64,000 nt of DNA from an uncultured Desulfohalobiaceae bacterium (GTDB lineage: Bacteria > Desulfobacterota > Desulfovibrionia > Desulfovibrionales > CAZUBS01), in assembly GCA_964594925.1 (NCBI GenBank), contig CAZQOG010000002.1, positions 389 through 64,388 on the forward strand, in the 5' to 3' direction. The position numbers were made by a program, and so were the translations under genes. Below are positions 8,888 to 26,119 of this stretch, one piece after another. The number at the start of each line of letters is the position of its first letter. The stretch's first letter is position 1. Under the pieces are notes generated by a model that did not search any database, was not told the DNA's origin, and saw only the letters and a list, made by a program, of their open reading frames with translations.

Positions 8888-10636
8888 CTAAGCTTCCCAC
8901 CCACGCTCCTGATAGTACTCGCTGAGCATGGTCTCCATCTCCTGCTCCGTAATGGTGTGCCCGGAGGGGAGCACCTCGCTGGTCAGGCGGCGGGGCAGGC
9001 GGTCCATGTCCGGGGTCAGCCCCTCGCGCAGATTGAAGCGCCTGGTTGCGTCCACTGTGCGTGCGGCTGTTTTTCGCAGCCCGGACGTGTCCAGGTCCTG
9101 CCCGGTGAGGAGTCGGACAAGTGAGGCCAGCTCCTCCCAGGGATAGAGGTCGCGGTAGAAACGGCACAGGATCAGGGAGTCGAACAGGCAGAGCCGGTCT
9201 TCGAAGTCCACGAGCATCGCGGCCTTGCCTTCGACCTGTTGCGGGGAGATCATTCCGGACAGCTCTGGCTTGTAGAAGGTGGTGCGCAGGTGGCAGGCGC
9301 CCCGGGGGCTGGTTCCGTAGGTCAGCCCCATGCCCTTGAGCACCCGCGGGTCGTACCCGGCAGGCTCCATGCCCTTGACGTGCACGGCCTGGTCGGACAT
9401 GCCCCACGAGGCAGCAGCCTGGACAATGCCCCCGGCCAGTACCGCACCCAATCCCTTGCGTCCGGCCATGTCCTTGATCAGGGCGGCGCACCCGTCAGGG
9501 TCATTGTACCCGGCAACAGGTTCGATCTTCCCCTGCAGCCCGGCTTCGATGGCCAGAGCGCACAGGTTGCCCGCGCTGATGGTGTCCAGCCCCAGCCGGT
9601 CGCACAGGTCGTTGAGCCAGGCGATCTCGGCCAGGTCGTCGATCATGCACAACCCGCCAAAGGCATAGATGGTTTCATACTCCGGGCCCTCTATGACCAG
9701 GCCCTTGTGCCGCCCGTGGCTGATCTCGGCCATGCGCCCGCAGGCCATGAAGCACTTCAGGCAGGCGTGGGGGCGCACCCGGTGCTCGGCGTGGTAGGTT
9801 TCCCCGGTCAGACGTTCCCAGTGGTCGCAGGTGCCCTGCTGCCAGTAGCGGGCCGGAAAGGCCTGGGCCGTGTTCATCAGGGCCACCATCATGGTGGTGC
9901 CAAAGCCTTTGTAGGCCTTGACTCCCGGGTTGTCCCGTCCCCGGGACGAAAACTCACGGGCGTACTCCTTGAGCCCGGCGGGGTCGGCAACGCTGCGCTT
10001 GCTGTCGCCGGCAAAGACCAGGGCCTTGAGCTGTTTTGCGCCCATGACGGCGCCGGTCCCGCCCCGGCCGGCACTGCGCCAGCGGTCGTTCTCGATGCAG
10101 GCGAAGACGACCCTGTTCTCCCCGGCCGGCCCGATGACCACCGCACCGGGCCGGCCAAAGCCGGGCCCGGAGGGTGCGAACCTGCGCACGGCCTCTGTTT
10201 CGGCTTCATAGGTCTCCATGCCCCACAGCGCAGTTGCGTCGTGAAAGTCGCACCCGTCGGGATGCACGGCCAGCACCGTGGGCCGCTCGGCAGATCCTGA
10301 GATGACCAGGGCATCGAACCCGGCAGCGTCCATGGCCTCGGGTGTTTTGCCCCCGGCATAGGACTCGGCATAGAGCCCGGTCTGGGGGGACTTGGTGTAG
10401 ACCCCGTAGCGGCTGCCGCCCCAGGCGGGCCCGTTGCAGGCGGGGCCGGTGGCGAAGATGAGCCGGTTCTCCGGGGCCAGCGGCTCCACCCCGGCGGGGT
10501 TGTGCTCGAGCAGCAGGTGCGTGGCCAGCCCCCTGCCTCCCAGCGTGGCCGACAGCAGCTCGTCGGACAGGGGCAGGATTTCGCAGCAGCGGCGGGTCAG
10601 GTCGACCGAGAGGTAGCGTCCGTAGAATCCGTGCAT
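8888..10636 (-). CDS. aor: aldehyde:ferredoxin oxidoreductase family (tungstopterin AOR-type)
   Basis: 582-aa ORF. AOR N-terminus MHGFYGRYLSVDLT...TLGGRGLATHLL...NRLIFATGP, plus later GLDTISAGN and CHLR blocks typical of the AOR family. Confidence 0.9.
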   Translation of the reverse strand: MHGFYGRYLSVDLTRRCCEILPLSDELLSATLGGRGLATHLLLEHNPAGVEPLAPENRLIFATGPACNGPAWGGSRYGVYTKSPQTGLYAESYAGGKTPEAMDAAGFDALVISGSAERPTVLAVHPDGCDFHDATALWGMETYEAETEAVRRFAPSGPGFGRPGAVVIGPAGENRVVFACIENDRWRSAGRGGTGAVMGAKQLKALVFAGDSKRSVADPAGLKEYAREFSSRGRDNPGVKAYKGFGTTMMVALMNTAQAFPARYWQQGTCDHWERLTGETYHAEHRVRPHACLKCFMACGRMAEISHGRHKGLVIEGPEYETIYAFGGLCMIDDLAEIAWLNDLCDRLGLDTISAGNLCALAIEAGLQGKIEPVAGYNDPDGCAALIKDMAGRKGLGAVLAGGIVQAAASWGMSDQAVHVKGMEPAGYDPRVLKGMGLTYGTSPRGACHLRTTFYKPELSGMISPQQVEGKAAMLVDFEDRLCLFDSLILCRFYRDLYPWEELASLVRLLTGQDLDTSGLRKTAARTVDATRRFNLREGLTPDMDRLPRRLTSEVLPSGHTITEQEMETMLSEYYQERGWEA

Positions 10637-10652
10637 GGGGAAACCTTGTTCA

Positions 10653-10885
10653 GTTCGAAGTTCGAAGTCGGAAGTTGGAAGGGAAGACCTCTAACACAAT
10701 GCCGCAACGTTGAGGAGATACTGTTGATTCAGTCCTTTCTTGTTCATCCTTTTCAACGGTTGTTTAAAAACCAAGTTTCAGGCCGAAAGTTCGAAGAAAT
10801 GAGAAAGTGCGTGCATTTTTCTTCATTGCTTAAAATGTCGTTTTGTCTTTCCCTTCCAGCTTCGAACTTCCGACTTCGAACTTTT
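10653..10885. repeat. inverted pair of GAAG-heptad arrays bracketing a 162-nt AT-rich spacer
   Basis: Left arm 10653-10686: gttcgaa gttcgaa gtcggaa gttggaa gggaag. Right arm 10849-10885 is the reverse-complement type (ttccagc ttcgaac ttccgac ttcgaac) and abuts the gabT stop (10888). Arms match at roughly 29 of 34 positions by unit-wise comparison. Confidence 0.85.
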
Positions 10886-10887
10886 AT

Positions 10888-12186
10888 CTAGCGCAAAGCG
10901 CTCAATCCGTCGCGCAGGATGGACAGGCCGCGTTCCAGCTCCTGATCGGTGATGACCAGGGGCATGAGGGTGCGGATGACGTTGCCGTAGGTGCCGCAGG
11001 ACAGGACGATCAGGCCGTGCTCGTGGCACCAGGCCACCAGCTGCTTGGCCGTGTCCGTGGCCGGCTTCTTTGTCTCGCGGTCCTGGACCAGCTCCAGGGC
11101 CAGCATGGGCCCCTTGCCGCGCACGTCTCCGATGACCTCGAACTCCTGCTGCAGAGCGGTGAAGCTTTGCAGCAGCCGTTCTCCAAGGTCCCGGGCCCGC
11201 TCCAGGAGACCGTCCCCCAGGAGAATATCCAGCACGGCCAGGGCGGCCCGGCAGGCCAGGGGGTTCCCGCCGTATGTTCCGCCCAGCCCCCCCACGTGGG
11301 GGGTGTCCATCATTGCGGCCCGCCCGATGACTCCGGACAGGGGAAGGCCCGCAGCCATGGACTTGGCCACGGTGACAAGGTCCGGGGCCACGTTCCAGTG
11401 CTCGATGGCAAAGAGGCTTCCGGTGCGTCCGAAACCGGTCTGGACCTCGTCGATGATCAGGGCGATGGCGTACTTGTCGCAGATGGCCTTGAGCCTGGCA
11501 AAGTACTCCGGCGGCGGGGTCGCAAACCCGCCTTCCCCCTGGATGGGCTCGGCCACCAGGGCCGCGGTCTGCTCGGCGGCCACGTGGGAGATGAAGAACT
11601 CCTCCAGGTAGTCGGCGCAGGCCACGTCGCACCCCGGGTAGGTCAGCCCGAAGGGGCAGCGGTAGCAGTAGGCGTAGGGCATGCGGTAGACCTCGGGCGC
11701 AAAGGGCCCGAACCCGAACTTGTAGGGCTTGACCTTGCTGGTCAGGCTCATGGTCAGCAGGGTCCTGCCGTGGAAACCGTTCTCGAAGCAGATCACGGCC
11801 GGCCTGCCGCTGACGTACCGGGCAACCTTGACCGCGTTCTCCACGGCCTCGGCACCCGAGTTCAAGAGCAGGGTCTGCTTGGGAAAGTCCCCGGGAGCCA
11901 GGCTGTTCAACCGCTCGGCCAGCTCCAGGTAGGGCTCGTACATCATGATGTGGAAGCAGGTATGCAGGAACTTGTCGGCCTGGTCCTTGACCGCCTCCAC
12001 GACCTTGGGGTGGCAGTGACCCACGTTGACCACCCCGATGCCTCCGGCGAAGTCGATGTACTCCTTGCCCTCGGTGTCGGTAATCACGGCCCCGCGGGCC
12101 TTGGCCGCAAAGGCTGGGACCACGTTGAACGGCCCTTTGGGGATATTGTCGGCACGTCGCCCGAGAAGGCTTTTGGTGTCGGACAT
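10888..12186 (-). CDS. gabT: 4-aminobutyrate aminotransferase-type class-III PLP aminotransferase
   Basis: 432-aa ORF with GAGGAG upstream. GFHGRT, DEVQTGFGRTGSLFAIEHWNVAPDLVTVAKSMAAG (Schiff-base Lys) and overall GabT-like length. Confidence 0.85.
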   Translation of the reverse strand: MSDTKSLLGRRADNIPKGPFNVVPAFAAKARGAVITDTEGKEYIDFAGGIGVVNVGHCHPKVVEAVKDQADKFLHTCFHIMMYEPYLELAERLNSLAPGDFPKQTLLLNSGAEAVENAVKVARYVSGRPAVICFENGFHGRTLLTMSLTSKVKPYKFGFGPFAPEVYRMPYAYCYRCPFGLTYPGCDVACADYLEEFFISHVAAEQTAALVAEPIQGEGGFATPPPEYFARLKAICDKYAIALIIDEVQTGFGRTGSLFAIEHWNVAPDLVTVAKSMAAGLPLSGVIGRAAMMDTPHVGGLGGTYGGNPLACRAALAVLDILLGDGLLERARDLGERLLQSFTALQQEFEVIGDVRGKGPMLALELVQDRETKKPATDTAKQLVAWCHEHGLIVLSCGTYGNVIRTLMPLVITDQELERGLSILRDGLSALR

Positions 12187-12207
12187 TATTTCAACTCCTC
12201 ACGTTTT

Positions 12208-12350
12208 CAAGTTCGAAGCAGCCGGCTGCGCCGGAGTTCGAAAGGGGAAGTTCGAAGTCGGAAGGAAAAGGCAGAACGGCGAGAACGCAAAATTCTTATA
12301 CTTTTTCTCCCTTCGAACTTCCGACTTCGAACTTCGAACTTCGAACTTTT
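12208..12350. repeat. inverted GAAG-heptad arrays between the thiolase and gabT genes
   Basis: Right arm 12309-12350 (ccttcgaac ttccgac ttcgaac ttcgaac ttcgaac tttt) includes the thiolase stop codon (12349-12351). Left arm 12245-12265 (ggggaag ttcgaag tcggaag g) contains an 18-nt perfect complement (gaagttcgaagtcggaag). There is also a small palindrome gcagccggctgc at 12218-12229. Confidence 0.85.
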
Positions 12351-13551
12351 ATACTCTTTCTATCACCGTGGCCACGCCCTGGCCGCCGCCGATGCAGGAG
12401 GCGGCGCAGCCGATGCTGCCGTTCTCGCTGTGCAGGATCCTGGCCAGGGTGCCCACCAGGCGGATGCCGGTGGCGCCCATGGCATGGCCCAGGGCCAGCC
12501 CCCCGCCCTTGACGTTGACCCGGTCCATGGGGATGCCGAGATCCGTGACCGCATTGAGCACCACCACGGCAAAGGCCTCGTTGATTTCCCAGAAATCAAT
12601 ATCCGAGGGCTTCAAACCGATTGCTTCCAAGGCCCTGCGGGCCGCGGGGACCGGAGCCAGCCCCATCAGGGTGGGGTCCACCCCGGCAAACCCGATGGAA
12701 CGGACCGTGGCCAGGGGGGAGATTCCCTTTTTCTCGGCGCTTTCACGGTCCATGAGCACCATGGCTGCGGCCCCCGAGTTGAGGGGGGAGGCATTGCCCG
12801 CGGTGATCCCGCCGTGGTCGGGGTCGAAAATGGTCTTCAGCCCGGCCATGCCCTCCAGGGTGGCGTTGTCTCGTACCGCCTGGTCGCGGTCCACGGTCAT
12901 CACGCTGCCGTCGGCCTGGGGCGCGTCCACCGGAATGATCTCCCCGTCAAAGTAGCCCTGCTCCCTGGCCCGGACAGCCAGCTGGTGGGAACGCACCCCC
13001 AGCTCGTCCATTTCCCGGCGGGTGAAGCCGGTCTGCTTCCAGAGCTTCTCCGCGGTTCTGCCCATGACCATGGTGGTGTCCATGTCCCAGTGGGCGTAGC
13101 GCTCCTCGGTGGACAGGGCGGGGTTCATGCTGATGCTGCCTTCCTTGAACAGCTTGGGTCCCATGGGGACCCTCGTCATCTGCTCCATGCCGCAGGCCAG
13201 CACGGTGTCGGCGAACCCGCCGGCAATCTCCAGGAAGGCGGTGTGCAGGGCGGCCATGCCCGAGCCGCACTGCATGTCCAGAAACTTGGCCGGGATGGAG
13301 GCGGGCAGGTTGGCCTGGAAGATGGGGGTGCGCCCGCCAAAGGTCCAGTTCTCGGTCACCCCCAGGGCGCAGCCCACCAGGAAGTCGTCCAATGACTCGG
13401 GGGCGACCCCGGCGCGGGCGAGCACCTCGGGGATGACGGCGGTCAGCAGCTCGTCAGCCCGCAGGGCGTGGAACCAGTCCCTTTCGGGCTCCTGGGGTCT
13501 GGCCCTGGACTGGGCCGTGCGGCCGTAACCGACAATGACAACGTCGCGCAT
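12349..13551 (-). CDS. acetyl-CoA C-acetyltransferase (thiolase II)
   Basis: ORF track 12349..13614, trimmed to ATG 13551 (AAGGAG 9 nt upstream; MRDVVIVGYGRT). C-terminal thiolase signature GLALGHAMGATG...CIGGGQGVATVIE. Confidence 0.9.
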   Translation of the reverse strand: MRDVVIVGYGRTAQSRARPQEPERDWFHALRADELLTAVIPEVLARAGVAPESLDDFLVGCALGVTENWTFGGRTPIFQANLPASIPAKFLDMQCGSGMAALHTAFLEIAGGFADTVLACGMEQMTRVPMGPKLFKEGSISMNPALSTEERYAHWDMDTTMVMGRTAEKLWKQTGFTRREMDELGVRSHQLAVRAREQGYFDGEIIPVDAPQADGSVMTVDRDQAVRDNATLEGMAGLKTIFDPDHGGITAGNASPLNSGAAAMVLMDRESAEKKGISPLATVRSIGFAGVDPTLMGLAPVPAARRALEAIGLKPSDIDFWEINEAFAVVVLNAVTDLGIPMDRVNVKGGGLALGHAMGATGIRLVGTLARILHSENGSIGCAASCIGGGQGVATVIERV

Positions 13552-13650
13552 GTCTAAAAAGCTCCTTGTTGCAGTGACTATGGGAAGATTTGTCTTTGTA
13601 GGGGCACGTTGCACGTGCCCTCTCCCAGTCCCGGCTTCACCACGACACCC

Positions 13651-14919
13651 TTACTCCACCACCCCGCACCAGCGAACAGCGAACAGGGCGTAGGCCCTGG
13701 CCGTGTGCAGGACCGAGTCAAGGCGGACCCGCTCGTCCGCCCCGTGGATGTTTTCGGCCACCGGCCCGTAGCAGCACCCCCGCGCCCGGCCAAAGGAGTA
13801 GAAGGCGCGCAGGTCGGTTGTGCAGGTGGAGACATAGCTGTCCGGTTCGTTGCCGGTCAGCTCGCGGTGACAGCCGGAGAGCACAACCAGTGGGGGGGCA
13901 TCCGGCTGTTCGACATGACCGTCGGAGCGGAACCCGTAGAACTCTACCTGCGGGGGGTTCTCCCGCAGCCACGGGTCCTGTTCGGCCGCCCGGGACACTG
14001 TCTCTGTTATGCGCGTGCGCATGGCGGCAAACGTGGTTCCGGGAAAATAGGAGAGCCGGCAGTGGAACTCTGCGTCGGCCGGGACAGTGGAAGGCCAGTC
14101 CCCTCCGTTGAGCATGCCCACATTGAGGTTGAGGGGGTGGTCAAAGCCCTCGTAGGGCGGGGGCAGGGGGGGCTGGTTCAACTCTTCTTCCAGCTCCCGG
14201 AGGGCCGTGATCAGGGGAAAGCACTTTTCCAGGGCGTTGGCGCCGGCCCCCGCTTCCAGCACGTGCACCGGCCGCCCCCCCACCCGGACCCTGAACCAGA
14301 GCACCCCCACCTGGGCGGTGTACAGCCGGGGGCCGAAGGGTTCGGGGATGAGCACGGCCCGGGCATCGACCCCGGCAGCCCGGCAGGCCAGGGCCCCGTT
14401 GCCCGAGCACTCCTCCTGGACGACCGCCTCCAGGGTCAGGGGGGCGGCCAGGCCGAAACCGGCCCTGCGGATGGCCGCGGCCGCATAGGTCATGGCCGCC
14501 ACACCCGACTTCATGTCGCCGGAGCCGCGTCCGTGCATCCAGCCGTCGCGCACCAGGGGGTCGAAGGGGTCACTGGACCACAGACGGGAAGGCTCGGGGC
14601 TGACCACGTCCAGGTGGCCGTTGAACAGGGCGCTGCGGCCGGTTGTCGCCCCTGGCTGGATCTCCGAGACCAGGCAGTGGGACGTGTGGGAGGCCAAAGG
14701 CATGGGCCCGTAGCCCGGATGAGCGTTCAAGGCGGCGTGGTCCACGGGGATGCGCCTGACCGGCAGGCCCAGCCGTTCGAGCTCCTCCTCCATGACCTGG
14801 AGGGTACCAGCCTCGTTGCCCACGGTGCTGGGCTCGGCCACCAGCCGGGCGGTGAAGTCGAAGATGTCCTCGGACAGGGCTTCAACAGCGGTGATGACGG
14901 CTTGCTCTCGTCGGTCCAT
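13651..14919 (-). CDS. M20-family ArgE/DapE-type deacylase (metallopeptidase)
   Basis: ORF track 13651..14949; start at ATG 14919 or 14949. LFNGHLDVVSP...WSSDPFDPLVRDGWMHGRGSGDMKSGVAA is the M20 ArgE/DapE metal-site pattern. Confidence 0.8.
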   Translation of the reverse strand: MDRREQAVITAVEALSEDIFDFTARLVAEPSTVGNEAGTLQVMEEELERLGLPVRRIPVDHAALNAHPGYGPMPLASHTSHCLVSEIQPGATTGRSALFNGHLDVVSPEPSRLWSSDPFDPLVRDGWMHGRGSGDMKSGVAAMTYAAAAIRRAGFGLAAPLTLEAVVQEECSGNGALACRAAGVDARAVLIPEPFGPRLYTAQVGVLWFRVRVGGRPVHVLEAGAGANALEKCFPLITALRELEEELNQPPLPPPYEGFDHPLNLNVGMLNGGDWPSTVPADAEFHCRLSYFPGTTFAAMRTRITETVSRAAEQDPWLRENPPQVEFYGFRSDGHVEQPDAPPLVVLSGCHRELTGNEPDSYVSTCTTDLRAFYSFGRARGCCYGPVAENIHGADERVRLDSVLHTARAYALFAVRWCGVVE

Positions 14920-14929
14920 GGTGCCTCTG

Positions 14930-15580
14930 TCAGAAGCGCGGGATCTCACCCGTGGGAACGGTCACCTCGGCCTCGGTCCTGCTGAGCATGTCCGCAAGGT
15001 CGGCTTCTTTGGCCAGCTCGCGCAGCACCAGGCCCTGTGGGGTCACGTCCAGCACTGCCAGCTCGGTGACAATGGTGGTCACGCATTTTTTAGCGGTGAC
15101 CGGCAGGGAGCAGCGTTTCAGGATCTTGGGACGCCCTTTGCCCGTGGTGTGGGTGGTGGTCACGATGACCTTGCGGGCCTTCTGGGCCAGCTCCATGCCC
15201 CCGCCGATGCCGGGCGCGAACCTGCCGGGGATGACCCAGTTGGCCAGGTCACCCCCCCCGCTGACCTCCAGGGTGCCCAGGATGGCCACGTCGAGCCGGC
15301 CGCCCCGGACCAGGGCAAAGGACAGGGCGGAGTCGAAAAAGGCGGCCCCGGGGCGCAGCTGCACGTAGTCACCCCCGGAGTCGATCAGGCATGGGTCCTC
15401 GGTCCCCCTCGGGCAGCGCGGCCCCATGCCCAGGATGCCGTTCTCGGAGTGGACAAAGATGTCCACCCCCGGGGGCAGATGCTGCAGGACGCGGGTGGGC
15501 AGGCCGATACCCAGGTTGACCACCTGGCCGGAGACAAGCTCGGCAGCGGTGCGCTGTGCGATCCTGGTCTTAGGCGACAT
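14930..15580 (-). CDS. 3-oxoacid CoA-transferase, subunit B
   Basis: MSPKTRIAQRTAAELVSGQVVNLGIGLPT is the subunit-B N-terminus. ATG 15580 overlaps the end of subunit A by 11 nt; TTG 15589 is an alternative start. Confidence 0.88.
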   Translation of the reverse strand: MSPKTRIAQRTAAELVSGQVVNLGIGLPTRVLQHLPPGVDIFVHSENGILGMGPRCPRGTEDPCLIDSGGDYVQLRPGAAFFDSALSFALVRGGRLDVAILGTLEVSGGGDLANWVIPGRFAPGIGGGMELAQKARKVIVTTTHTTGKGRPKILKRCSLPVTAKKCVTTIVTELAVLDVTPQGLVLRELAKEADLADMLSRTEAEVTVPTGEIPRF

Positions 15581-16265
15581 GGTTCTCAAGCACCTCGTAC
15601 TCTTTCATGCCGGTGGCCACGGGCACGACATGGTCCACAAAAGCGCCGGGGGTGTGGATGTGGTCAGGGTCGAGCTCGCCGATGTCCACGATCTCCCGCG
15701 CTTCAGCCACCACGAGGTCCGCGGCCGTGGCCATGAGGGGGTTGAAGTTGCGGGCTGTCTTTTCGAAGATCAGGTTGCCCCAGCGGTCGGCCCTGGCCGC
15801 ATGCACAAGGGCCACCTCGGCCCGCAGAGCCGGCTCCACTATGTAGCGGCGCCCCCTGAAGGAGGTTGTTTCCCGCTGCTCGGCCAGGATCGTCTCCAGC
15901 CCGATGTCCGTGAGAAAGGCGGCCAGGCCCGCCCCACCGGCTCTGATCTTTTCGGCCAGGATGCCCTGGGGGTGCATTTCCACCTCCAGCCGGCCCTGGT
16001 TCATCATCTCGATGGCCAGGGCGTTGAGGCCCATGTGCGAGACGATGAACCGCTTGGCGCGGCCGGCCTCGAACAAGGTGGATATGCCCATGCCCTGCTC
16101 GTTGGCGTCGTTCTTGATCAGGGTCAGCCCTGCTGCACCCTGCTCCAGCAGGGCGGCAATGAGCGTGAAGGGGGTGCCTGGGGCGCCGAACCCCCCGATC
16201 ATGACGCGTGAGCAGTGGGCCACGGTGCGCAGTGCCCCGGCAGGGGTGGTGGTCTTGTCGATCAT
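15570..16265 (-). CDS. 3-oxoacid CoA-transferase, subunit A
   Basis: 231-aa ORF. VMIGGFGAPGTPFTLIAALLEQGAAGLTLIKNDAN is typical of family-I CoA-transferase subunit A. ATGA overlap with the upstream fusion gene. Confidence 0.88.
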   Translation of the reverse strand: MIDKTTTPAGALRTVAHCSRVMIGGFGAPGTPFTLIAALLEQGAAGLTLIKNDANEQGMGISTLFEAGRAKRFIVSHMGLNALAIEMMNQGRLEVEMHPQGILAEKIRAGGAGLAAFLTDIGLETILAEQRETTSFRGRRYIVEPALRAEVALVHAARADRWGNLIFEKTARNFNPLMATAADLVVAEAREIVDIGELDPDHIHTPGAFVDHVVPVATGMKEYEVLENHVA

Positions 16266-18601
16266 CCGTGCCTCTTCATGGTGCCCGGGGTGCGCAGCCC
16301 CGGGGTGGGGAAGGCCGGATCCAGGGCCTCCACGCCGGCATCGGCCAGGTAGCGGCTGGTTCTCTTCAAGGCCCGCTCCAGCTTGTCCAGCAGCTCGCCG
16401 ATCTGCTTCTCATTGATAATCAGCGGCGGGGCCACCAGCACGTGGTCGCCGAACAGGCCATTGATCGAGCGGCGGGGGTAGATGATCAACCCCTCCTCAA
16501 AGGCGTTGTCTGTGAGCACCATGGCCGCGTTCCACTCCGGTGGGAAGGGGTCGCGGGTCGCTGTGTCGCGCACCAGCTCAATCGCGGTCAAAAGCCCCAG
16601 GCCGCGGACGTTGCCGATGATGCTGTACCGGTCTTGCAGCTGCTCCAGGCCGTGCAGCAGGACCTTGCCCATGGCTGCGGCGTTCTCCGGCAGCTGCTCC
16701 TCCAGGATGATGTTCAGCACCTCCAGACCTACGGTGCAGGCCATGGGGTTGCCCGCGTAGGTGTGTCCGTGGGCGAATCCTCCACGGGAGACCACGGCAT
16801 TGACGATCTCCTGGGAGGTCAGAACCGCCCCCAGGGGGTAGTAGCCCGAGGCAATGCCCTTGGACAGGGCGATGATGTCCGCCTCCACCCCCCAGTGCTC
16901 GTAGGCGAACAGCCTGCCGGTGCGCCCGAACCCGGTCATGACCTCGTCCAGGATGAGCAGCACGCCGTATTTGCGGCAGATGTGCTGGATGACCGCGAAG
17001 TACTCCTTGGGGGGCACCAGGGCGCCGGTGCTGGCCCCGCCCACCGGCTCGGTCACGAAAGCGGCCACGTTGTCCGGACCTTGCTCCAGGATGACCCGCT
17101 CCAGGGCCCAGGCGCACTCCAGGCCGCAGTCCGGGTAGGTCTGGTGGTAGACGCAGCGGTAGCAGTAGGGAGCGGGAATCTTGGGGTAGTCGCGCACCAG
17201 GGGTTTGAAGGCCACCTCCAGGGGGGCGTAGGATGTCAGGGCCAGGGCGCCGAGGGTGGCTCCGTGGTAGGAGGGGACCCGGCTGATGAACTTGTAGCGT
17301 GAGCCCTCCCCCAGGTTGAAAAAGTACTGGCGGCAGACCTTCATGGCCGACTCCACCGCCTCAGAGCCTCCAGAGACGTAGAAGACCTTGTTCAGGTGCG
17401 GGGAGGTATGCTGGACCAGCTTCTTTGCCAGACGCTTGGAAGGCTCGTTCTCGAACTGGGTGCGGTAGGCGAAGAAGGTCCGCTGGGCCTGCTGCTCCAT
17501 GGCCGCAATGACCCGCTTGTCGCCGTGCCCGATGTTGTTGACCACCGCCCCTGAAGAGCCGTCCAGGTACCGTTTCCCCACGGTGTCCCACATGTAGATG
17601 CCCTTGGACTTGGCAATGGTGGGCTGGCGTTTCTTGGTCTGGTAGAAAAGAAACTGCTCCTGGTCGGGGTAGGCGGCCAGCTCTGCGGGGTGGACCTTGA
17701 ACAGCTCGGGGTTTGAGGCGTGGAAGCGGTTGAGCTTTTCCACGGGTGTGAGGCGGCCCAGGCTGCGCAGGGGGATGTGGGTGTTGTACACGTAGCAGTA
17801 GGAGAGCAGCTTCTTTTCCAGCTCCTCGCTGGAGGCGAAGGGGGAGTAGGCCAGCTCAGAGAGCCCTGACAGGAGCTGGGACTCACCGGGCGCGGGGTCC
17901 GGGTAGACGTGCTGCTCTATGGAAAGCTCCCGGCAGGCAGCGGCAAAAAAATGGTCGTGGTCGGATCCTTCCGAAGTGAAGGCTGGGCGGTCGGCAGTGA
18001 GCACGCGCCAGATGCAAAAAGGGGCGGCCTGGCTCAGGTTGCGCAGAAACCCGGCGGCCGAGTCCGGTGAGCCATCCGGCCGGGTTTCCATGAAGATCCA
18101 GCTGGTGGCCCGGTCAACCGACAGAAAAAGGTGCTTGCGGAAGGTCTCGTCCTGCATGCGGGGCAGGGAGCGTTCGTAGAGGCGCATGTGTCCCGGCAGG
18201 TACCGCTGGTGTTTGCGGACAACCGCCTTGTGCTCCTCGATGTCCGGGACCAGCTCGCCCACGCGGCACACCCCGTGGCGGCGCAGCAGCCTGTCCAGTG
18301 AGGACCGTGAGCAGGAGGGCATGAGAAAGGTCCGGACCACGGTGAGCAGGTCGTCAAGGGACAAGAGCAGGATGCGGCGGATCTCGACGATGAGCAGCTC
18401 CTGCTCCAGCGTGAACAGCACGCTGGAGTGGGCAGTGCAGTCCCGGGTCTGGACCTTTCCGGCCCGGCTGCGCCATTTGCGGACGGTTGCGATGCTCAGC
18501 CCCAGCTCGTTGGCCAGCTCGGCCACGGAGTCAGTGGACTCCTGAATATATCTGCCGATCTCGGGAGTGACAGTGATCTTCCAGTTCTTTCTCAGCCCCA
18601 T
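16262..18601 (-). CDS. fusion protein: degenerate IS481-type transposase (HTH + rve-like, DDE lost) N-domain + complete class-III aminotransferase C-domain
   Basis: Single 779-codon ORF. Residues 1 to about 301 (nt 17699-18601) are transposase-like; residues about 315-779 are aminotransferase (GSEAVESAMK, YHGATLGALALT, DEVMTGFGRTGRLFAYEHWGVEADIIALSKGIASG). See the finding at 16262-18601. Confidence 0.8.
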   Translation of the reverse strand: MGLRKNWKITVTPEIGRYIQESTDSVAELANELGLSIATVRKWRSRAGKVQTRDCTAHSSVLFTLEQELLIVEIRRILLLSLDDLLTVVRTFLMPSCSRSSLDRLLRRHGVCRVGELVPDIEEHKAVVRKHQRYLPGHMRLYERSLPRMQDETFRKHLFLSVDRATSWIFMETRPDGSPDSAAGFLRNLSQAAPFCIWRVLTADRPAFTSEGSDHDHFFAAACRELSIEQHVYPDPAPGESQLLSGLSELAYSPFASSEELEKKLLSYCYVYNTHIPLRSLGRLTPVEKLNRFHASNPELFKVHPAELAAYPDQEQFLFYQTKKRQPTIAKSKGIYMWDTVGKRYLDGSSGAVVNNIGHGDKRVIAAMEQQAQRTFFAYRTQFENEPSKRLAKKLVQHTSPHLNKVFYVSGGSEAVESAMKVCRQYFFNLGEGSRYKFISRVPSYHGATLGALALTSYAPLEVAFKPLVRDYPKIPAPYCYRCVYHQTYPDCGLECAWALERVILEQGPDNVAAFVTEPVGGASTGALVPPKEYFAVIQHICRKYGVLLILDEVMTGFGRTGRLFAYEHWGVEADIIALSKGIASGYYPLGAVLTSQEIVNAVVSRGGFAHGHTYAGNPMACTVGLEVLNIILEEQLPENAAAMGKVLLHGLEQLQDRYSIIGNVRGLGLLTAIELVRDTATRDPFPPEWNAAMVLTDNAFEEGLIIYPRRSINGLFGDHVLVAPPLIINEKQIGELLDKLERALKRTSRYLADAGVEALDPAFPTPGLRTPGTMKRHG

Positions 18602-18938
18602 GTCAGTGCTCCGGTCTGAATCGAGGATACATCACGCGCACCCAGGCCGGTTTTTTGCGGCCGGGTCTGGCGTGCCGGCCTTTGACCTCTTCCCCCCTGG
18701 CGGGATGATGCCTCACACCCAGGCCCGGGGAGGTGCACGGGCAAACCATTTCAGTATAAAGGGAACAGGCGCAAAAAGAAAGACACACCCGGTCTTTGAT
18801 GCATGGCCGGGTTCGTATCACACCCGGTATGCCCCGGCATGCATAGGATGTTTTACACACTGTTGCAACGTGCATCTGGCCGGTACCATTCCTTGAGTAA
18901 GGATGTATTGGGAGGCAGTGGTGCACACTGCCAACGGC

Positions 18939-18967
18939 TTGACAAATGAAAACCCGCCCCATACCAT
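18939..18967 (+). promoter_or_regulatory. candidate sigma70-type promoter for the ABC-transporter operon
   Basis: TTGACA (18939-18944), 17-nt spacer, TACCAT (18962-18967), about 100 nt upstream of ATG 19068. A 7-bp inverted repeat ggcagtg-N5-cactgcc sits just upstream at 18914-18932. Consensus match only. Confidence 0.35.
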
Positions 18968-19067
18968 CCGCGAATCTGAGTAAAGATGCGCAGTAATCGG
19001 GTTTTGAGAACAGTTGTCAAATGATTGAAGTGCTGTGCCCTGATACACACAAAGCCCCACGCAAGCC

Positions 19068-19931
19068 ATGTCTGAAAAATCGGGCTGGAAACCCTGGGCA
19101 CTGTTGGCCCCCTCCCTGAGCGCGGTCTTCTTCCTGCTGGTCGTCCCGGTCTGCTTTATCATAGTCTACAGTTTCTGGCTCCGCGCTCCAAGCGGTGCGG
19201 ACATCCCGGCCTTCCAGTTCGGAAACTACGCCAAGTTCTTCCAGGACTTCTTCTACTCCTCCATTTTGCTGCGCACCATCAGGGTCAGCCTGGAGTGCGT
19301 GGCCCTGTGCCTGGTCATGGGGTACATCCCCGCATATTTCTTCTACCGCACCCGGACCCGTTTCCGGGGGGTGCTCATGCTGCTGATCATGCTCCCGTTC
19401 TGGATCAGCTTCATCATCCGCACCCTGTCCTGGATCAACATTTTGGGGGACACCGGCCTGATCAACTACGTGCTGACCAGCACCGGAATCCTCTCCGAAC
19501 CGCTGGGCATGCTCTACAACGAGGGCGCGGTGCTCATGGGGCTGATCCAGTACCTGCTGCCCTTCATGATTTTGAACATCTACGTCAGCCTGGAAGGCAT
19601 CGACAAAAGCCTGCTCGAGGCGGCCCGGTCCATGGGCTGCACCGAGTGGCAGGCCTTCAAGGAGGTCACCCTGCCCCTGTCCCTGCCCGGGGTCAGCGCC
19701 GGCAGCCTGCTGGTCTTCGTGCTCACCGCGGGCACCTACCTGCCGCCCATGATCCTCGGCGGGCCGGGCAACGAGATGATCGCCAACCTGATCTTCAAGC
19801 GGGTCATCGGAACCCTGGACTGGCCGTTCGGGTCTGCCATCAGCGTTGTGCTGCTGCTGCTCGTGGGGACCATCGTCTGGACCTACAACCGTTACCTGGG
19901 CATCAACCAGGTCTTCAAGGCCATGCAATAG
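19068..19931 (+). CDS. ABC transporter permease, PotB/spermidine-putrescine type
   Basis: 287-aa ORF with 6 predicted hydrophobic segments. EAA-loop-like LEAARSMGCTEWQAFKEVTLPLSLPG. Confidence 0.85.
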   Translation: MSEKSGWKPWALLAPSLSAVFFLLVVPVCFIIVYSFWLRAPSGADIPAFQFGNYAKFFQDFFYSSILLRTIRVSLECVALCLVMGYIPAYFFYRTRTRFRGVLMLLIMLPFWISFIIRTLSWINILGDTGLINYVLTSTGILSEPLGMLYNEGAVLMGLIQYLLPFMILNIYVSLEGIDKSLLEAARSMGCTEWQAFKEVTLPLSLPGVSAGSLLVFVLTAGTYLPPMILGGPGNEMIANLIFKRVIGTLDWPFGSAISVVLLLLVGTIVWTYNRYLGINQVFKAMQ

Positions 19932-19938
19932 GGAAAGA

Positions 19939-20730
19939 ATGGTGCGGATTTCCGGCTGGTCACTCATCAAGCTCTACACCATCCTGGTGTACGTGTTCAT
20001 GTTCGCCCCCATCGTGGTGGTGATCATCCTGGCCTTCAACCCGCAGCAGTTCGGCTCTTTTCCCATGGACGGATTCAGCCTGCGCTGGTTCGTCAAGCTG
20101 GCCCAGAACGAGGTCATCCTCATGGCCTTCAAGAACTCCCTGGTCCTGGGCAGCCTGACCGCTGTCTGCACCACCCTTGTGGCCATACCCGCGGCCATGG
20201 CCTTTGTGCGCTACGAGTTCCCGGGAAAAAACAGCCTGAACACCCTGCTGCTGGCCCCGATCATGGTGCCCGAAGTCATCCTGGGCGTGGCCCTGCTGCT
20301 GTTCATCCGCTGGCTGCAGCAACCCAAAAGCTTTGCCCTCTTGCTCGTCGGCCACGTGGTCATCACCCTGCCGTATGTCCTTCTCGTGGTGCAGGCCAGG
20401 CTGGTGGGCATCAGGACCGACTATGAGGAAGCTGCCAAATCCCTGGGCGCCAACGCCTTTCAGACCTTTCGGGAGATCACCCTGCCCCTGCTTCTCCCAG
20501 CCATCTTCGCCGGCATGCTCTTCTCCTTCACCATCTCCTTTGACGACATCACGGCCACGTTGTTCTGGGCAACGGCCCAGAACCAGACGGTGCCGGTCAA
20601 GATATTCGGCATGCTGCGCAACTCCATCAGCCCGGAGATCAACGCCCTGGGCGCGGTCATGATCGTGCTCACGGTGTCAACGCCCCTTCTGGCCGGTTAT
20701 CTGGCCAGGCGTTTCGCCAGGGGAAAGTGA
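19939..20730 (+). CDS. ABC transporter permease, PotC type
   Basis: ORF track 19846..20730, trimmed to ATG 19939 (MVRISGWSLIKLYTILVYVFMFAPIVVVIILAFN). EAAKSLGANAFQTFREITLPLLLPA. Confidence 0.85.
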   Translation: MVRISGWSLIKLYTILVYVFMFAPIVVVIILAFNPQQFGSFPMDGFSLRWFVKLAQNEVILMAFKNSLVLGSLTAVCTTLVAIPAAMAFVRYEFPGKNSLNTLLLAPIMVPEVILGVALLLFIRWLQQPKSFALLLVGHVVITLPYVLLVVQARLVGIRTDYEEAAKSLGANAFQTFREITLPLLLPAIFAGMLFSFTISFDDITATLFWATAQNQTVPVKIFGMLRNSISPEINALGAVMIVLTVSTPLLAGYLARRFARGK

Positions 20731-20799
20731 AACCCGGCCGAAAGACCCGGCCATTTTTCAGGGCGGGGGGATCCCTGCTCAAAACTCAAGGAGGACGAG

Positions 20800-21957
20800 A
20801 TGTCTGATGTTTGGAAGAAACGTGTGGAAGATGTGCACGCCCGGTATGAAGCTGGTGAGCTCTCCCGCCGCGATTTTTTGCGGTTCATGGTCATAGCGGG
20901 CACGGCAGCGGGACTGGCAGGCGGCCCCTTCGGCCTGCTTGGTTCGGCCCAGGCAGCCGACTCCATCCGTTTCGACGGCTGGGGCGGGACAACATCCGAG
21001 GCCTTTCGCAAGTATGCCTTCGATCCCTTCACCAAGGCCACGGGCATCGAGGTCATCGACGGGGAGTTCGGGGACATGGACTCCTATCTGACCCGGGTCA
21101 AGGCCTCCTTTCCCCCGGGGGGCGAGTACAACCTGGCCCACCTGTCCGGGGTGTTCGACTACGCCCGCTACGTGGGTCTGGGCTTCAACTCCGCCCTGGA
21201 CGAGAGCGAGATACCCAACCTGTCCCTGGTCATGCAGGCCATGGTCAAGCCCTACTACGCCATTACTCCGGGATCCCTGTCCGCTGTGCCCTACGACCTC
21301 GGGCAGACCGGCATTGCCTACAACACCAAGCATATCTCAAAGGAAAAGGCTGAAAAACTTGGGGCCGGGATCCTGTTCGAGGAGACCCTGAAGGACAAGA
21401 TCGGCTCCTGGACGGACTGGCGCACCAACATCTGGTACGCAGCCCTGTACACCGGCCAGAACCCCAACGACATCAGCGATTTGGACAAGGTCTGGAAGGC
21501 CCTGCGCAAGCAGCGCGACCTGATCAAGAAGTACTGGGGATCGGGCGCCGAGCTGATGAGCCTGCTGGCCAATGAGGAGATCTACGCCACACCGGCCTGG
21601 TCCGGGCGGGTCTACCATCTGCAGGAGCAGGGACACCCCATCGGGTACCTGGCGCCGGAAGGCACCTACTCCTGGCAGGAGTGCATCTTCGTCATCAAGG
21701 GCACCGACCTGGACACGGCCCACAAGCTGCTCAACTTCATGCTCGAGCCAGAGGCGGCCATTGCCGTGGCCGATGCCCAGAAGTATCCGCCCAGCCTGGA
21801 CCCGTCCAAGGTGGACATGCCTGAATCGGTCTCCAAGCTGCCGGCCTTCGATCCCACCGGGCAGCTCAAGGGGTACCTGTTCGGCGTGCCGGACTACTGG
21901 AACGGGCACCAGCTGGAGTGGGCGGAGCAGTGGGACCGCATCATGGCCGGCGCTTAG
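20800..21957 (+). CDS. periplasmic substrate-binding protein, PotD/PotF family, with twin-arginine signal
   Basis: 385-aa ORF behind AAGGAGGA. SRRDFLRFMVIAGTAAGLAGGPFGLLGSAQA is a Tat-type signal. Mature part is SBP_bac_1/PotD-like in length. Confidence 0.8.
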   Translation: MSDVWKKRVEDVHARYEAGELSRRDFLRFMVIAGTAAGLAGGPFGLLGSAQAADSIRFDGWGGTTSEAFRKYAFDPFTKATGIEVIDGEFGDMDSYLTRVKASFPPGGEYNLAHLSGVFDYARYVGLGFNSALDESEIPNLSLVMQAMVKPYYAITPGSLSAVPYDLGQTGIAYNTKHISKEKAEKLGAGILFEETLKDKIGSWTDWRTNIWYAALYTGQNPNDISDLDKVWKALRKQRDLIKKYWGSGAELMSLLANEEIYATPAWSGRVYHLQEQGHPIGYLAPEGTYSWQECIFVIKGTDLDTAHKLLNFMLEPEAAIAVADAQKYPPSLDPSKVDMPESVSKLPAFDPTGQLKGYLFGVPDYWNGHQLEWAEQWDRIMAGA

Positions 21958-22081
21958 CAATCAGTTGAAAAATCCCGGCTGGCTTCGTTGCTGCGGCCAG
22001 GTCAAACCCTCACGTATATGGTATACGCTTCGGACTTGACCAGGCCTTGCGCCTCGCCAGCCAGGTTTTTGAACTGATTGC
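21957..22081. repeat. 125-nt near-perfect long palindrome (extended hairpin) starting in the stop codon of the binding-protein gene
   Basis: Nested complementary blocks: gcaatcagttgaaaaa/tttttgaactgattgc (15 of 16), cccggctggc/gccagccagg (9 of 10), ggccaggtcaa/ttgaccaggcc (10 of 11). Apical stem cgtata-tgg-tatacg (6 of 6). Confidence 0.85.
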
Positions 22082-22099
22082 AATCCGCCCTGCGGGCGA

Positions 22100-22220
22100 G
22101 TTCGAAGTTCGAAGCTCGAAGCTGAGAGCAAGGGAAAGAAAAGAAGCTGAAGCAAGGCTTCAGCAGTATTGCCTCCGGCCGGCCGGTCCTATCGGTCCTA
22201 CAGTGACGGCCGGCCGGAGG
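22100..22220. repeat. GAAG heptads followed by two further hairpins in the same intergenic region
   Basis: Heptads gttcgaa gttcgaa gctcgaa gctgaga (22100-22127). 8-bp stem gctgaagc/gcttcagc (22146-22164). 14-bp GC stem cctccggccggccg/cggccggccggagg (22172-22220) whose loop holds two nonamer-type units, gtcctatcg gtcctacag. Confidence 0.85.
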
Positions 22221-22273
22221 CTTCACCACAGCGCTGTCCGGCAGCACAGCATGTAACGCGAAGAGGAACACCA

Positions 22274-23392
22274 GTGGCTACCGGTACCAACCAACCCGTT
22301 GTCCAGCTCAAAGGGCTCATGAAGCGCTTCGGCAGGACCCTGGCCGTCGAGAAGATGGACCTGTCCATTGCACAGGGGGAGCTGGTGACGCTGCTCGGCC
22401 CCTCGGGGTGTGGGAAGACGACAATCCTGCGCATGATCGCCGGGTTGGAGAAACCCACCGAAGGCGATATCTACATCAAGGGAAAGTGGGTCAACGACAC
22501 CCCCATCCACAAGCGGAACCTGGGCATGATCTTCCAGAACTACGCCCTGTTCCCGCACAAGACCATCTTCGACAACGTGGCCTTCGGGCTCAAGTACCGC
22601 GATGTCCCAAAAAGTCAGATGAAAGAGAAGGTCTCCAATGCCCTGGAGATGGTCCGGCTGCCCGGCGTGGAGAAACGCTACTCGGCCCAGCTTTCCGGAG
22701 GGCAGCAGCAGCGCATCGCACTGGCCCGGGCCATTGTCATCGAGCCCGACGTGCTGCTCATGGACGAACCCTTGTCCGCCCTGGACGAGAAGCTGCGGGA
22801 GGAGATGCGCATGGAGATCGACAACCTGCAGCAGAAGCTGGGGCTGACCACCATCTTCGTCACCCATGACCAGCGGGAGGCCCTGTCCATGTCCACCAGG
22901 ATCGTGGTCATGAAGGACGGACGCAAGCAGCAGGAAGGCGAGCCCGAGGACGTCTACGACTACCCCTCCAACCGTTTTGTGGCCGACTTCCTGGGCCACT
23001 CCAACTTCTACGAGGCCAGGGTGACCGGCCACACCTCGGACGGGTACACCAAGGTGGTGACCAGGGACGGCCTGGAGTTCGTGACCGAGCACCCGGGGGA
23101 GTGGGTCGAGGGACAGGAGGTGACCCTGGTCATCAGGGCCCAGAAGCTGAACCTGACCAGCCCCGGCCAGGAGGAGGAGCTCGAGTCCACAGCAGTGAAC
23201 CTCTACAACGGCACCATTTACGACCGCAGCTACATGGGGGGCGAGACCAGCTATTTCGTCGAGCTGGAAGGAGGGGTCAGGCTGCACGCCATCAGCATGG
23301 TCAGGCGCCGGCCCCACCGGATCGGCGACCCGGTGGTCCTGCACGTCCCGCCCCGGCACTGCGGGCTCCTGGCCCGGGAGGAAGCCCCGTAG
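22274..23392 (+). CDS. ABC transporter ATP-binding protein, PotA type
   Basis: ORF track 22169..23392, trimmed to GTG 22274 (AGAGGA upstream). Walker A GPSGCGKTT, signature LSGGQQQRIALARA, Walker B LLMDEPLSALD. Confidence 0.88.
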   Translation: MATGTNQPVVQLKGLMKRFGRTLAVEKMDLSIAQGELVTLLGPSGCGKTTILRMIAGLEKPTEGDIYIKGKWVNDTPIHKRNLGMIFQNYALFPHKTIFDNVAFGLKYRDVPKSQMKEKVSNALEMVRLPGVEKRYSAQLSGGQQQRIALARAIVIEPDVLLMDEPLSALDEKLREEMRMEIDNLQQKLGLTTIFVTHDQREALSMSTRIVVMKDGRKQQEGEPEDVYDYPSNRFVADFLGHSNFYEARVTGHTSDGYTKVVTRDGLEFVTEHPGEWVEGQEVTLVIRAQKLNLTSPGQEEELESTAVNLYNGTIYDRSYMGGETSYFVELEGGVRLHAISMVRRRPHRIGDPVVLHVPPRHCGLLAREEAP

Positions 23393-23435
23393 CAGCCGGC
23401 TCTCAAACAGGCTTTGCCCCGGAACACCCCCTTCA

Positions 23436-24464
23436 ATGGACCTCGCACACCTGAGCGCTTTTTTTGCGGGCCGCCATGACCAGGCCCTGGTCACGGTTGA
23501 CTCCCACACGGCCGGTGAGCCCACCCGTCTTGTCGTGGGGGGGCTCCCGCCGCTTCCCGGGGCCACCATGGCCGAGAAACGCGCCTACTTCATGGAGCAC
23601 CTGGACCATGTGCGACTGCTCCTGACCCGGGAGCCGCGCGGCCACCGGGACATGCTGGCCGCAGCCGTGACCGAGCCGTGCACACCGGGCGCCGACTTCG
23701 GCCTGATCTACATGGACGCCAGGCGCTACCCTTTTCTGTGCGGCCACGCCACCATCGGGGCAGTGACCACCTTGGTGGAGTGCGGGGTCATCAAGGCAAA
23801 GGGGTCCAGGGTCAGGGTCACGGTGGACACCCCGTCCGGCCCCATGCCCGCCCTGGCATCCCTTGATGGGGGGCGGGTCGTGAGCGTGTCCTACCATTCG
23901 GTCCCCTCGTTCGTTGCGGCCCGGGACAAGCCCTTGGAGGTGGAAGGGCTGGGCCGAATACCGGTGGACCTGGTCTGCGTGGGCGGCTACTTCGCCATGG
24001 TCGATGCCGTTAATACCGGCTTGGAACTGGTGCCGGAAAACGGACCCGAGCTTGTCAGGCTGGGCATGCGCATCGTTTCCTCGGCCAATCGCCAGTTTCA
24101 GGTCAGCCATCCCCTGCGGCCGGAGGTGGGCAGCATCGATGTGGCCGAAATCCATGCAAGCAGGGGAAGCGAAGGGATCAACGCCGTGGTCTATGGTGAG
24201 TCCCATCTGGACCGGTCCCCCTGCGGCACGGGGACCACGGCCAAGCTGGCGCTGCTGCATGCCCGGGGGCAGCTGGAGCGGGAGGAGCTTTTCGTGAACA
24301 GGAGCATGCTGGGCCAGGCCTTCACCGGGAGGATCGTGGCCGTGACCACTGTGGGCGACTACCCGGCCGTGGTGGCCGAAATCAGCGGGTCGGCCCACAT
24401 GACCGGGCTGCACAGGTTCTTTTGTGATCCTGACGACCCCTACCCCCGGGGGTTTCTGCTGTGA
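23436..24464 (+). CDS. proline racemase / 4-hydroxyproline epimerase family protein (Cys/Cys catalytic pair)
   Basis: 342-aa ORF. VDSHTAGEPTRLV, FLCGHATIG (first Cys) and DRSPCGTGTTA (second Cys) are the family motifs. Confidence 0.85.
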   Translation: MDLAHLSAFFAGRHDQALVTVDSHTAGEPTRLVVGGLPPLPGATMAEKRAYFMEHLDHVRLLLTREPRGHRDMLAAAVTEPCTPGADFGLIYMDARRYPFLCGHATIGAVTTLVECGVIKAKGSRVRVTVDTPSGPMPALASLDGGRVVSVSYHSVPSFVAARDKPLEVEGLGRIPVDLVCVGGYFAMVDAVNTGLELVPENGPELVRLGMRIVSSANRQFQVSHPLRPEVGSIDVAEIHASRGSEGINAVVYGESHLDRSPCGTGTTAKLALLHARGQLEREELFVNRSMLGQAFTGRIVAVTTVGDYPAVVAEISGSAHMTGLHRFFCDPDDPYPRGFLL

Positions 24465-26089: not shown

Positions 26090-26119
26090 AGGCCCCGGCA
26101 GAACCACGAGGTGTCCGTC

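Follow-up and report, generated by a model that had tools for sequence, protein, structure and literature searches.

An aminotransferase fused to a catalytically dead IS481-type transposase heads a catabolic operon in Desulfovibrionales and may act as its regulator

A 64,000-nucleotide stretch of DNA from an uncultured Desulfohalobiaceae bacterium, a sulfate reducer (contig CAZQOG010000002.1 of assembly GCA_964594925.1, positions 389 to 64,388; hereafter the window) was analysed for one gene on its minus strand, which joins a transposase-like domain to an aminotransferase. The original prediction of a single uninterrupted frame of 779 codons was confirmed. Its stop codon and the start codon of the gene that follows overlap in the sequence ATGA. 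A Shine-Dalgarno sequence lies 7 nt 5' of the start codon, and its GGAG equivalent was found ahead of the N-domain start codon in all nine orthologous loci compared. The remaining five frames across the first 933 nt of the fusion gene contain 4-12 stops each, and the chance of 311 open codons at this base composition is P about 6e-4. Two other assemblies encode 779-residue proteins that fall into the same 90% cluster as the window protein. The features of the gene, with helix-turn-helix given as HTH, are as follows.

16262..18601, minus strand: fusion gene, 779 codons plus stop, ATG start, a single open reading frame
18609..18612, minus strand: GGAG Shine-Dalgarno sequence, 7 nt 5' of the fusion-gene ATG
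Residues 1-307, N-terminal: IS481-type transposase homologue
18242..18601, minus strand: double-HTH region, residues 1-120, two three-helix bundles (helices 13-47 and 65-108)
17702..18196, minus strand: degenerate RNase-H-like (rve) core, residues 136-300, from the IS481 model, the alignment and AlphaFold 2 (AF2)
17642..17701, minus strand: junction, residues 301-320 (FKVHPAELAAYPDQEQFLFY)
Residues 308-779, C-terminal: complete class-III aminotransferase
16367..17623, minus strand: Aminotran_3 (PF00202), class III omega-type, residues 327-745, Pfam E=3.6e-102
16859-16861, minus strand: codon of the Schiff-base Lys581 (ALSKG)

The homology of the N-domain to transposases of IS481 type, as predicted, was established by the NCBIfam model transpos_IS481 (NF033577), which matches residues 19-289 across nearly its whole length (model positions 9-283 of 284, E=5.3e-28). 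The score of 98 bits is below the family cut-off of 224 bits, as is expected of a degenerate copy. The proposed Pfam check for rve and HTH domains gave rve_3 and HTH matches that were all sub-threshold, the HTH matches being of transposase type (HTH_Tnp_1, HTH_28 and HTH_23), and it was the NCBIfam model that carried the assignment. The N-domain is 33-42% identical to active copies named 'IS481 family transposase' by NCBI, and its double-HTH region keeps the motifs TVRKWRxR and LLLSLDDLL..SRSSLDRLLRRHG. Two AlphaFold models, one for the whole protein and one for residues 1-321, each had a mean predicted local distance difference test (pLDDT) score of 75. The core was modelled by AF2 at residues 138-233 as beta1-beta2-beta3-alpha-beta4-alpha-beta5, which is RNase-H-like, with pLDDT 80-97, and the loop 238-256 was disordered in the model and hypervariable among orthologues. 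The best fold matches of the N-domain in the PDB were the IS21 transposase IstA, retroviral integrases and MuA; a sequence search of the PDB with the N-domain profile gave no meaningful match, the fold search alone being successful. The N-domain is thus like the IS481-family transposases in its full-length homology and in its predicted fold.

The catalytic DDE (Asp-Asp-Glu) positions were compared by aligning the N-domain with twelve stand-alone relatives of 321-345 amino acids, which are 27-37% identical to it, possess the rve domain and have an intact DDE triad. The replacements in the window protein are listed below.

Codon 18176-18178: first DDE position, PGFxHxDVKYLP replaced by PGHMRLYERSLP, D142Y
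Codon 17993-17995: second DDE position, LTDNG replaced by LTADR, D203A
Codon 17867-17869: third DDE position, TNGMVERFN replaced by ESQLLSGLS, E245S

Two deletions further take out the FTDR... and FNGRIS segments of the core. All three DDE residues are missing in five of the five full-length fusions, and arginine occupies positions 140 and 144 in all of them. The whole triad is therefore replaced, as had been claimed, and only the register of the first Asp was two residues off in that claim (Y142, not R140). Terminal inverted repeats were sought about 40-100 bp 5' of the ATG and at the junction, and none was found; the best repeat pairs around the N-domain are 73-78% complementary and stand at the wrong places. 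The active relatives show clear terminal repeats of 31-32 nt. A second copy was sought in the window and was likewise not found. Unlike the IS481 transposases, the N-domain has lost the DDE triad, has its catalytic loops deleted, carries no terminal repeats and stands as a syntenic single copy fused to a host enzyme, so that the gene is not an insertion sequence (IS).

The claim of a complete aminotransferase with its Schiff-base lysine was upheld by the Aminotran_3 match and by the invariance of K581, D552, GGSEA and HTYAGNP with respect to the unfused enzymes. Searches of NCBIfam and the PDB placed the C-domain among omega-/amine-type class-III transaminases, with the closest solved relatives at E about 1e-88, and Aminotran_1_2 scored just E=0.069, which is in accordance with a class III and not a class-I-like domain. 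No GntR-type HTH was detected in the Pfam scan of the fusion protein. The fused enzyme part is 64-70% identical to its unfused orthologues. The operon contains a second aminotransferase, which is a class-III paralogue of about 35% identity occurring in fused and unfused loci alike, and the fusion operons hold no other copy of the fused orthologue. As the catalytic residues are invariant, the constraint is strong and no other copy exists in the operon, the enzyme domain is judged from its sequence to be almost certainly still active. The tail of the window protein, residues 751-779 (16265-16351, ...RYLADAGVEALDPAFPTPGLRTPGTMKRHG), is unlike the tail common to the other lineages, which ends ...ATP(F/Y)YR; it may stem from a 3' frameshift specific to this lineage or from a gene end that was fused anew.

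The distribution of the fusion was analysed by searches with the full-length query, which returned proteins of 776-777 amino acids with 67-70% identity in Paucidesulfovibrio gracilis DSM 16080, in metagenome-assembled genomes (MAGs) of Desulfovibrionales and in two metagenomes. Further members came from scans of genomes and metagenomes, namely a Desulfohalobiaceae MAG of 96% identity, one MAG each of Desulfovibrio sp., Desulfonatronovibrionaceae and Thermodesulfobacteriota, and others. The fusion thus occurs at about 13 further loci in roughly seven Desulfovibrionales lineages, with between-lineage identities of 50-72% for the N-domain and 77-92% for the enzyme. A neighbour-joining tree groups the fused aminotransferases in one clade, separate from the unfused enzymes, which indicates a single origin of the fusion. 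Only the full-length query and the genome and metagenome scans recovered fusions; searches with the N-domain alone, with its profile and with exhaustive representative sets returned ordinary IS481 transposases and never fusions. An early result of no fusion relatives was a search artefact, in which IS481 transposases swamped the fusions or representatives of aminotransferase clusters hid them.

Three copies of the fusion showed irregularities. A 1-nt deletion in a short homopolymer of the aminotransferase part was seen in each of L008 (5063-5069, near residue 392) and L034 (6192-6210, residues 376-381), and the downstream sequence is 80-98% identical in the new frame. These deletions are probably assembly errors, since two other assemblies hold the 779-residue members of the window's 90% cluster mentioned above, and recent inactivation is also conceivable. 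The Desulfovibrionales MAG sequence L013 (2388-2882) matches the fusion from residue 87 on, with unrelated in-frame sequence upstream and the first HTH missing or replaced, which could be a rearrangement or a chimeric contig.

Selection on the domains was estimated as pairwise Nei-Gojobori ratios of nonsynonymous to synonymous substitution (dN/dS), which are rough values with dS saturated at about 1-2. The ratio was 0.15-0.44 for the N-domain (0.15-0.17 for the two closest pairs), 0.14-0.43 for the RNase-H-like core alone and 0.08-0.23 for the enzyme domain, and the C-terminal tail of the window protein gave 0.96-2.3 versus each orthologue. The contrast of N-domain and tail argues for constraint at the amino-acid level, beyond a mere open frame, and the N-domain is under purifying selection. 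Retention was scored on columns conserved in at least 11 of the 12 active transposases: 71% of these columns are retained in residues 1-120 versus 39% in residues 121-300, and the losses in the core cluster on the catalytic motifs. All five fusions retain W43, R46, R75, R90, R99, R104, R107 and R108, and 16 conserved core columns are kept in every fusion. By the usual criteria the N-domain is a domesticated transposase, its catalysis and element ends being lost and its single-copy synteny and purifying selection being observed. Domestication had originally been argued from 300 open codons, which are weak evidence alone; the argument is now carried by conservation, synteny and dN/dS below 1.

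The junction was inspected for traces of the fusion event. No in-frame ATG, GTG or TTG exists between residue 288 and M337 of the window gene, which agrees with the predicted lack of a separate enzyme start. Transposase homology continues up to ...NPELFKVHPAE and is followed by codon L308 (17678-17680). The window gene reads CTG at this codon; of seven orthologues, four have ATG and a fifth, that of P. gracilis, has TTG. L308 lies nine residues ahead of the conserved FLFYQ, and the unfused enzymes begin slightly nearer to the motif, with M plus 7-11 residues before [F/Y]LFYQ. The element would therefore have lain right at the beginning of the enzyme gene and become joined to it in frame. Two active relatives with an intact frame (L014 and L015) have the transposase stop inside the terminal inverted repeat, within the terminal CTAG in L015. 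DDE-intact IS481 transposases with unrelated C-terminal extensions were also observed (P0134, P0173, P0308, P0324, P0325, P0381 and P0393), the extensions including an XRE HTH, GAF-PAS-HisKA-HATPase-REC and fragments of His_biosynth, phage integrase and IstB. The stop in the terminal repeat and the many unrelated tails indicate that the family readily reads through its right end. The top matches of the representative search, of 414-445 amino acids, were considered as sister dead fusions and were ruled out by their intact DDE triad and unrelated read-through tails.

The proposed course of events is that an IS481-type element inserted at the first codons of the aminotransferase gene, or immediately ahead of them, and that the loss of its terminal stop would have allowed in-frame read-through into the enzyme. 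This event would have occurred once, at the base of a Desulfovibrionales clade; the DDE triad and catalytic loops would have decayed afterwards, with the double HTH and the core fold kept by selection.

The fusion gene heads the same operon in every locus compared, and the prediction that it leads a catabolic operon and diverges from an ABC transporter was found to be correct. The surroundings in the window are given below.

8888..16265, minus strand: rest of the operon
15570-16265, minus strand: coenzyme A (CoA)-transferase A
14930-15589, minus strand: CoA-transferase B
13651-14949, minus strand: M20 amidohydrolase
12349-13614, minus strand: thiolase
10888-12186, minus strand: second class-III aminotransferase
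8888-10636, minus strand: aldehyde:ferredoxin oxidoreductase (AOR)
18602..19067, no strand: divergent intergenic region of 466 bp between the fusion gene and the ABC-permease gene, presumed regulatory target
18799-18844, in the middle of the divergent intergenic region: inverted repeat ATGCATGCCGGG-N20-CCCGGCCATGCAT
19068..27217, plus strand: divergent operon with two ABC permeases, a PotD-like binding protein, an ATPase and proline-racemase-family, Amidohydro_3 and ArgZ-C-like genes

The operon order is identical in L002, L003, L004, L005, L007, L033 and L034, and the divergent transporter set recurs in P. gracilis and, co-oriented, in the unfused locus L030. The gene content allows a guess at the pathway, which may lead from a beta/omega-amino acid to a 3-oxoacid and through CoA-transferase to thiolase. 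Much of the set, namely the omega-aminotransferase, CoA-transferase A/B, M20, thiolase, second aminotransferase, Pro_racemase-family and Amidohydro_3 genes and the ABC transporter, co-travels in Desulfovibrionales, Desulfatiglandaceae and Geopsychrobacter (L030, L031, L032, L035, L038 and L039) with varying transporters and regulators, so that this anaerobic route for amines or amino acids is apparently widespread.

Regulator genes were compared between 8 unfused and 13 fused loci, several of which are closely related to one another; the unfused loci have the orthologue of 64-70% identity and the same companion genes. A regulator is present in all eight unfused loci, being an orthologous IclR in L030, L031, L032, L038 and L039 and a sigma-54 activator of PAS-AAA+-HTH_8 architecture in L035, L036 and L037. 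It lies directly upstream of the aminotransferase gene in 6 of the 8; in the other two, L030 and L039, it is located about 4-7 kb upstream as the first gene of the co-oriented transporter-enzyme cluster. Searches by tblastn with the IclR and sigma-54 regulators found neither in any of the 13 fusion loci, where short contigs leave room for a distant regulator beyond the sampled flanks, nor in the entire 64-kb window. No other DNA-binding gene occurs within the two operons of the window, the nearest being a MerR gene beside pheST. The dead transposase thus occupies the place where relatives carry a dedicated regulator gene.

The intergenic regions were searched for an operator. The outer half-sites of the repeat at 18799-18844 are largely kept in the 96% relative L008, with a varying spacer, and are absent elsewhere; the repeat is a candidate for a lineage-specific operator. 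ATGCAT occurs twice in the 466 bp of the window and is not present upstream of the fusions of other lineages. By global alignment the upstream regions fail to align between lineages. A 14-mer best-match scan against shuffles together with a dyad search gave signal only from close relatives or from the upstream terminator hairpin, and footprinting within three sub-clades revealed only promoter-like blocks.

These results are read, with a little better than even confidence, as a domesticated dead IS481 transposase fused to an active omega-type aminotransferase and acting as the DNA-binding regulator of its own operon. The more specific proposal, that a DDE transposase of the IS481/rve type became the substrate-responsive DNA-binding module of an active aminotransferase and displaced the ancestral IclR or sigma-54 regulator of a conserved operon for amine/amino-acid catabolism across Desulfovibrionales, is given about an even chance. 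Class-III aminotransferases are obligate dimers, and all fold-type-I enzymes dimerise; a dimer would therefore present two transposase-derived double-HTH modules, which is a natural geometry for binding an operator. The HTH modules would bind the promoter region of their own operon, together with the divergent region where the transporter operon adjoins, and the substrate or the state of the cofactor in the enzyme domain, pyridoxal or pyridoxamine 5'-phosphate (PLP/PMP), would modulate the binding. The first enzyme of the pathway would then be its own substrate-sensing regulator (a 'trigger enzyme') and would replace the separate IclR or sigma-54 regulator of the relatives.

Several points weigh against this reading. 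We infer the DNA binding, the autoregulation and the response to a ligand, and no operator shared between lineages was found upstream of the fusion genes, nor was a relic inverted repeat common to the lineages. The upstream neighbour of the fusion gene is an ABC-transporter operon in the window, P. gracilis and L005, an SDR gene in L003 and cytochrome bd in L004; as it differs by lineage, any target must lie near the promoter of the fusion gene itself. Some free enzyme could be made in the four orthologues that have an ATG where the enzyme used to start. The N-domain evolves 2-3 times faster than the enzyme, and the saturated dS, the partly related loci of the regulator comparison and the short contigs noted above count on the same side.

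The alternative that survives best, although unlikely, holds the N-domain to be a functionless remnant, a 'hostage' leader: the enzyme would have no start codon or ribosome-binding site of its own, a stop or frameshift anywhere in the 307 preceding codons would destroy it, and selection would only keep the frame open and the domain foldable. The absence of a start codon at the window junction, the faster evolution of the N-domain with hypervariable catalytic loops and the failure to find an operator are consistent with it. Upkeep of the frame alone, however, predicts dN/dS near 1, as in the tail, and not the 0.15-0.44 of the N-domain, and the basic residues of surface type in the HTH helices (R46, R99, R104, R107, R108 and K42/W43) are kept where the catalytic ones are lost. 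The N-domain also persists in the four lineages with an ATG at the old start, and the missing IclR or sigma-54 regulator at every fusion locus would be left unexplained.

A functional N-domain that is not a transcription factor, serving in oligomerisation or as a scaffold, as a tether to the nucleoid or to a partner enzyme, or in RNA binding, is considered improbable. DDE cores dimerise. The dead core is under purifying selection (dN/dS 0.14-0.43, with the 16 conserved columns kept) and is confidently predicted (pLDDT 80-97 at residues 140-230), which exceeds the needs of a bare DNA-binding module and speaks for such a role. The best conservation, however, lies in the double HTH and not in the core, and the gene is placed where relatives carry a regulator gene.

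A pure regulator of MocR/GabR type, in which the aminotransferase domain is only a ligand sensor, is very unlikely, even though the combination of an HTH with an aminotransferase fold has a precedent in MocR/GabR and the operon has a second aminotransferase. The catalytic and PLP residues are invariant, the identity to unfused enzymes is 64-70% and dN/dS is 0.08-0.23; unfused operons hold both aminotransferases, the fusion operons are without another copy, and a GntR-type HTH is absent in Pfam. An ordinary recent IS insertion, a pseudogene or an assembly chimera reading through by chance, for which singleton read-through fusions of active IS481-type transposases and the 1-nt deletions in the enzyme part of metagenomic L008 and L034 could be cited, is refuted by the comparative data and can practically be set aside, since a cultured type strain and numerous independent assemblies share the fusion (50-96% identity) and its synteny, and since the DDE triad, the terminal repeats and a second window copy are all absent.

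The favoured reading, that of a regulatory fusion with an active enzyme, was compared with known systems. Besides PutA, trigger enzymes include BirA and NadR, and the enzyme gene putA is divergent from its cognate transporter gene putP. In the trifunctional PutA (proline utilisation A) a ribbon-helix-helix (RHH) domain autoregulates the put regulon (PMC5293562), and the archaeal RbkR is a fusion of a kinase with a regulator (PMC5397151). Like PutA and other trigger enzymes, the fusion protein is a metabolic enzyme with an N-terminal, here predicted, DNA-binding domain and a proposed role as repressor of its own regulon, and as in putA-putP its gene is divergent from a transporter in the window, P. 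gracilis and L005. The N-domain is not an RHH or winged-HTH domain but a whole dead DDE transposase with two HTH bundles and an RNase-H-like core, and its regulatory role is presumed; unlike in PutA, the enzyme is a PLP-dependent aminotransferase.

The MocR regulators combine a GntR-type winged HTH with a class-I-like aminotransferase domain, the enzyme function of which is generally lost. The fusion is like MocR/GabR in having an HTH and a fold-type-I PLP domain, which could couple ligand chemistry to DNA binding. It is not a member of that family, being without a GntR match and having a class III domain that looks catalytic. PutA appears the closer analogy because the enzyme part is almost certainly still active. 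The earlier idea of a MocR-like regulator may thus hold for regulation, the fusion loci being without the regulators of the relatives, but less so for the comparison with MocR.

Eukaryotes offer well-documented cases of DDE transposases that were domesticated into host regulators, and TldR is a bacterial domesticated regulator derived from TnpB. The plant proteins FHY3/FAR1 are domesticated transcription factors from MULE transposases (PMC13306707). The fusion is like FHY3/FAR1 and TldR in the loss of catalysis with a proposed retention for nucleic-acid recognition and gene control. In contrast to these stand-alone proteins, an rve-type DDE transposase is here covalently joined to an enzyme of the presumed target operon. 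The literature search returned neither a description of the transposase-aminotransferase architecture nor a case in which a bacterial DDE transposase had been domesticated as a regulator. The claim that no such family is described therefore stands for published papers and not for databases, where the protein is present and labelled as an aminotransferase. The public labels read 'aminotransferase class III-fold PLP-dependent enzyme' or 'BioA', and one JGI label adds 'transposase-like protein'.

If the predicted DNA binding is true, the fusion would be a one-component regulator or trigger enzyme of a new type and would offer a general mechanism by which insertion sequences seed regulatory proteins; the 'aminotransferase' annotations would then conceal a regulatory domain of 300 residues. 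The evolutionary path is legible: a read-through IS captured an enzyme, its own catalysis was then lost with the HTH retained, and the old regulator apparently became dispensable. The cultured type strain P. gracilis DSM 16080 carries the fusion, which makes it experimentally tractable.

A further group of proteins of IS481 type was observed in Colwellia, where proteins of 276-300 amino acids carry the double HTH (L021:3880-4734, L023:3720-4613, L026:7995-8894 and L020:6176-7057), with counterparts in Psychromonas (L022:7995-8840 and L016:1315-2133). Their double HTH is 39-46% identical to residues 1-118 of the fusion and is followed by an acidic linker and a truncated core without the DDE residues (LTDNG replaced by LAGNY). 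The orthologues share 52-92% identity, and the Colwellia species have conserved genes on either side of them. These proteins may represent a second, independent family of domesticated IS481 transposases, which hints that the same route to new regulators recurs.

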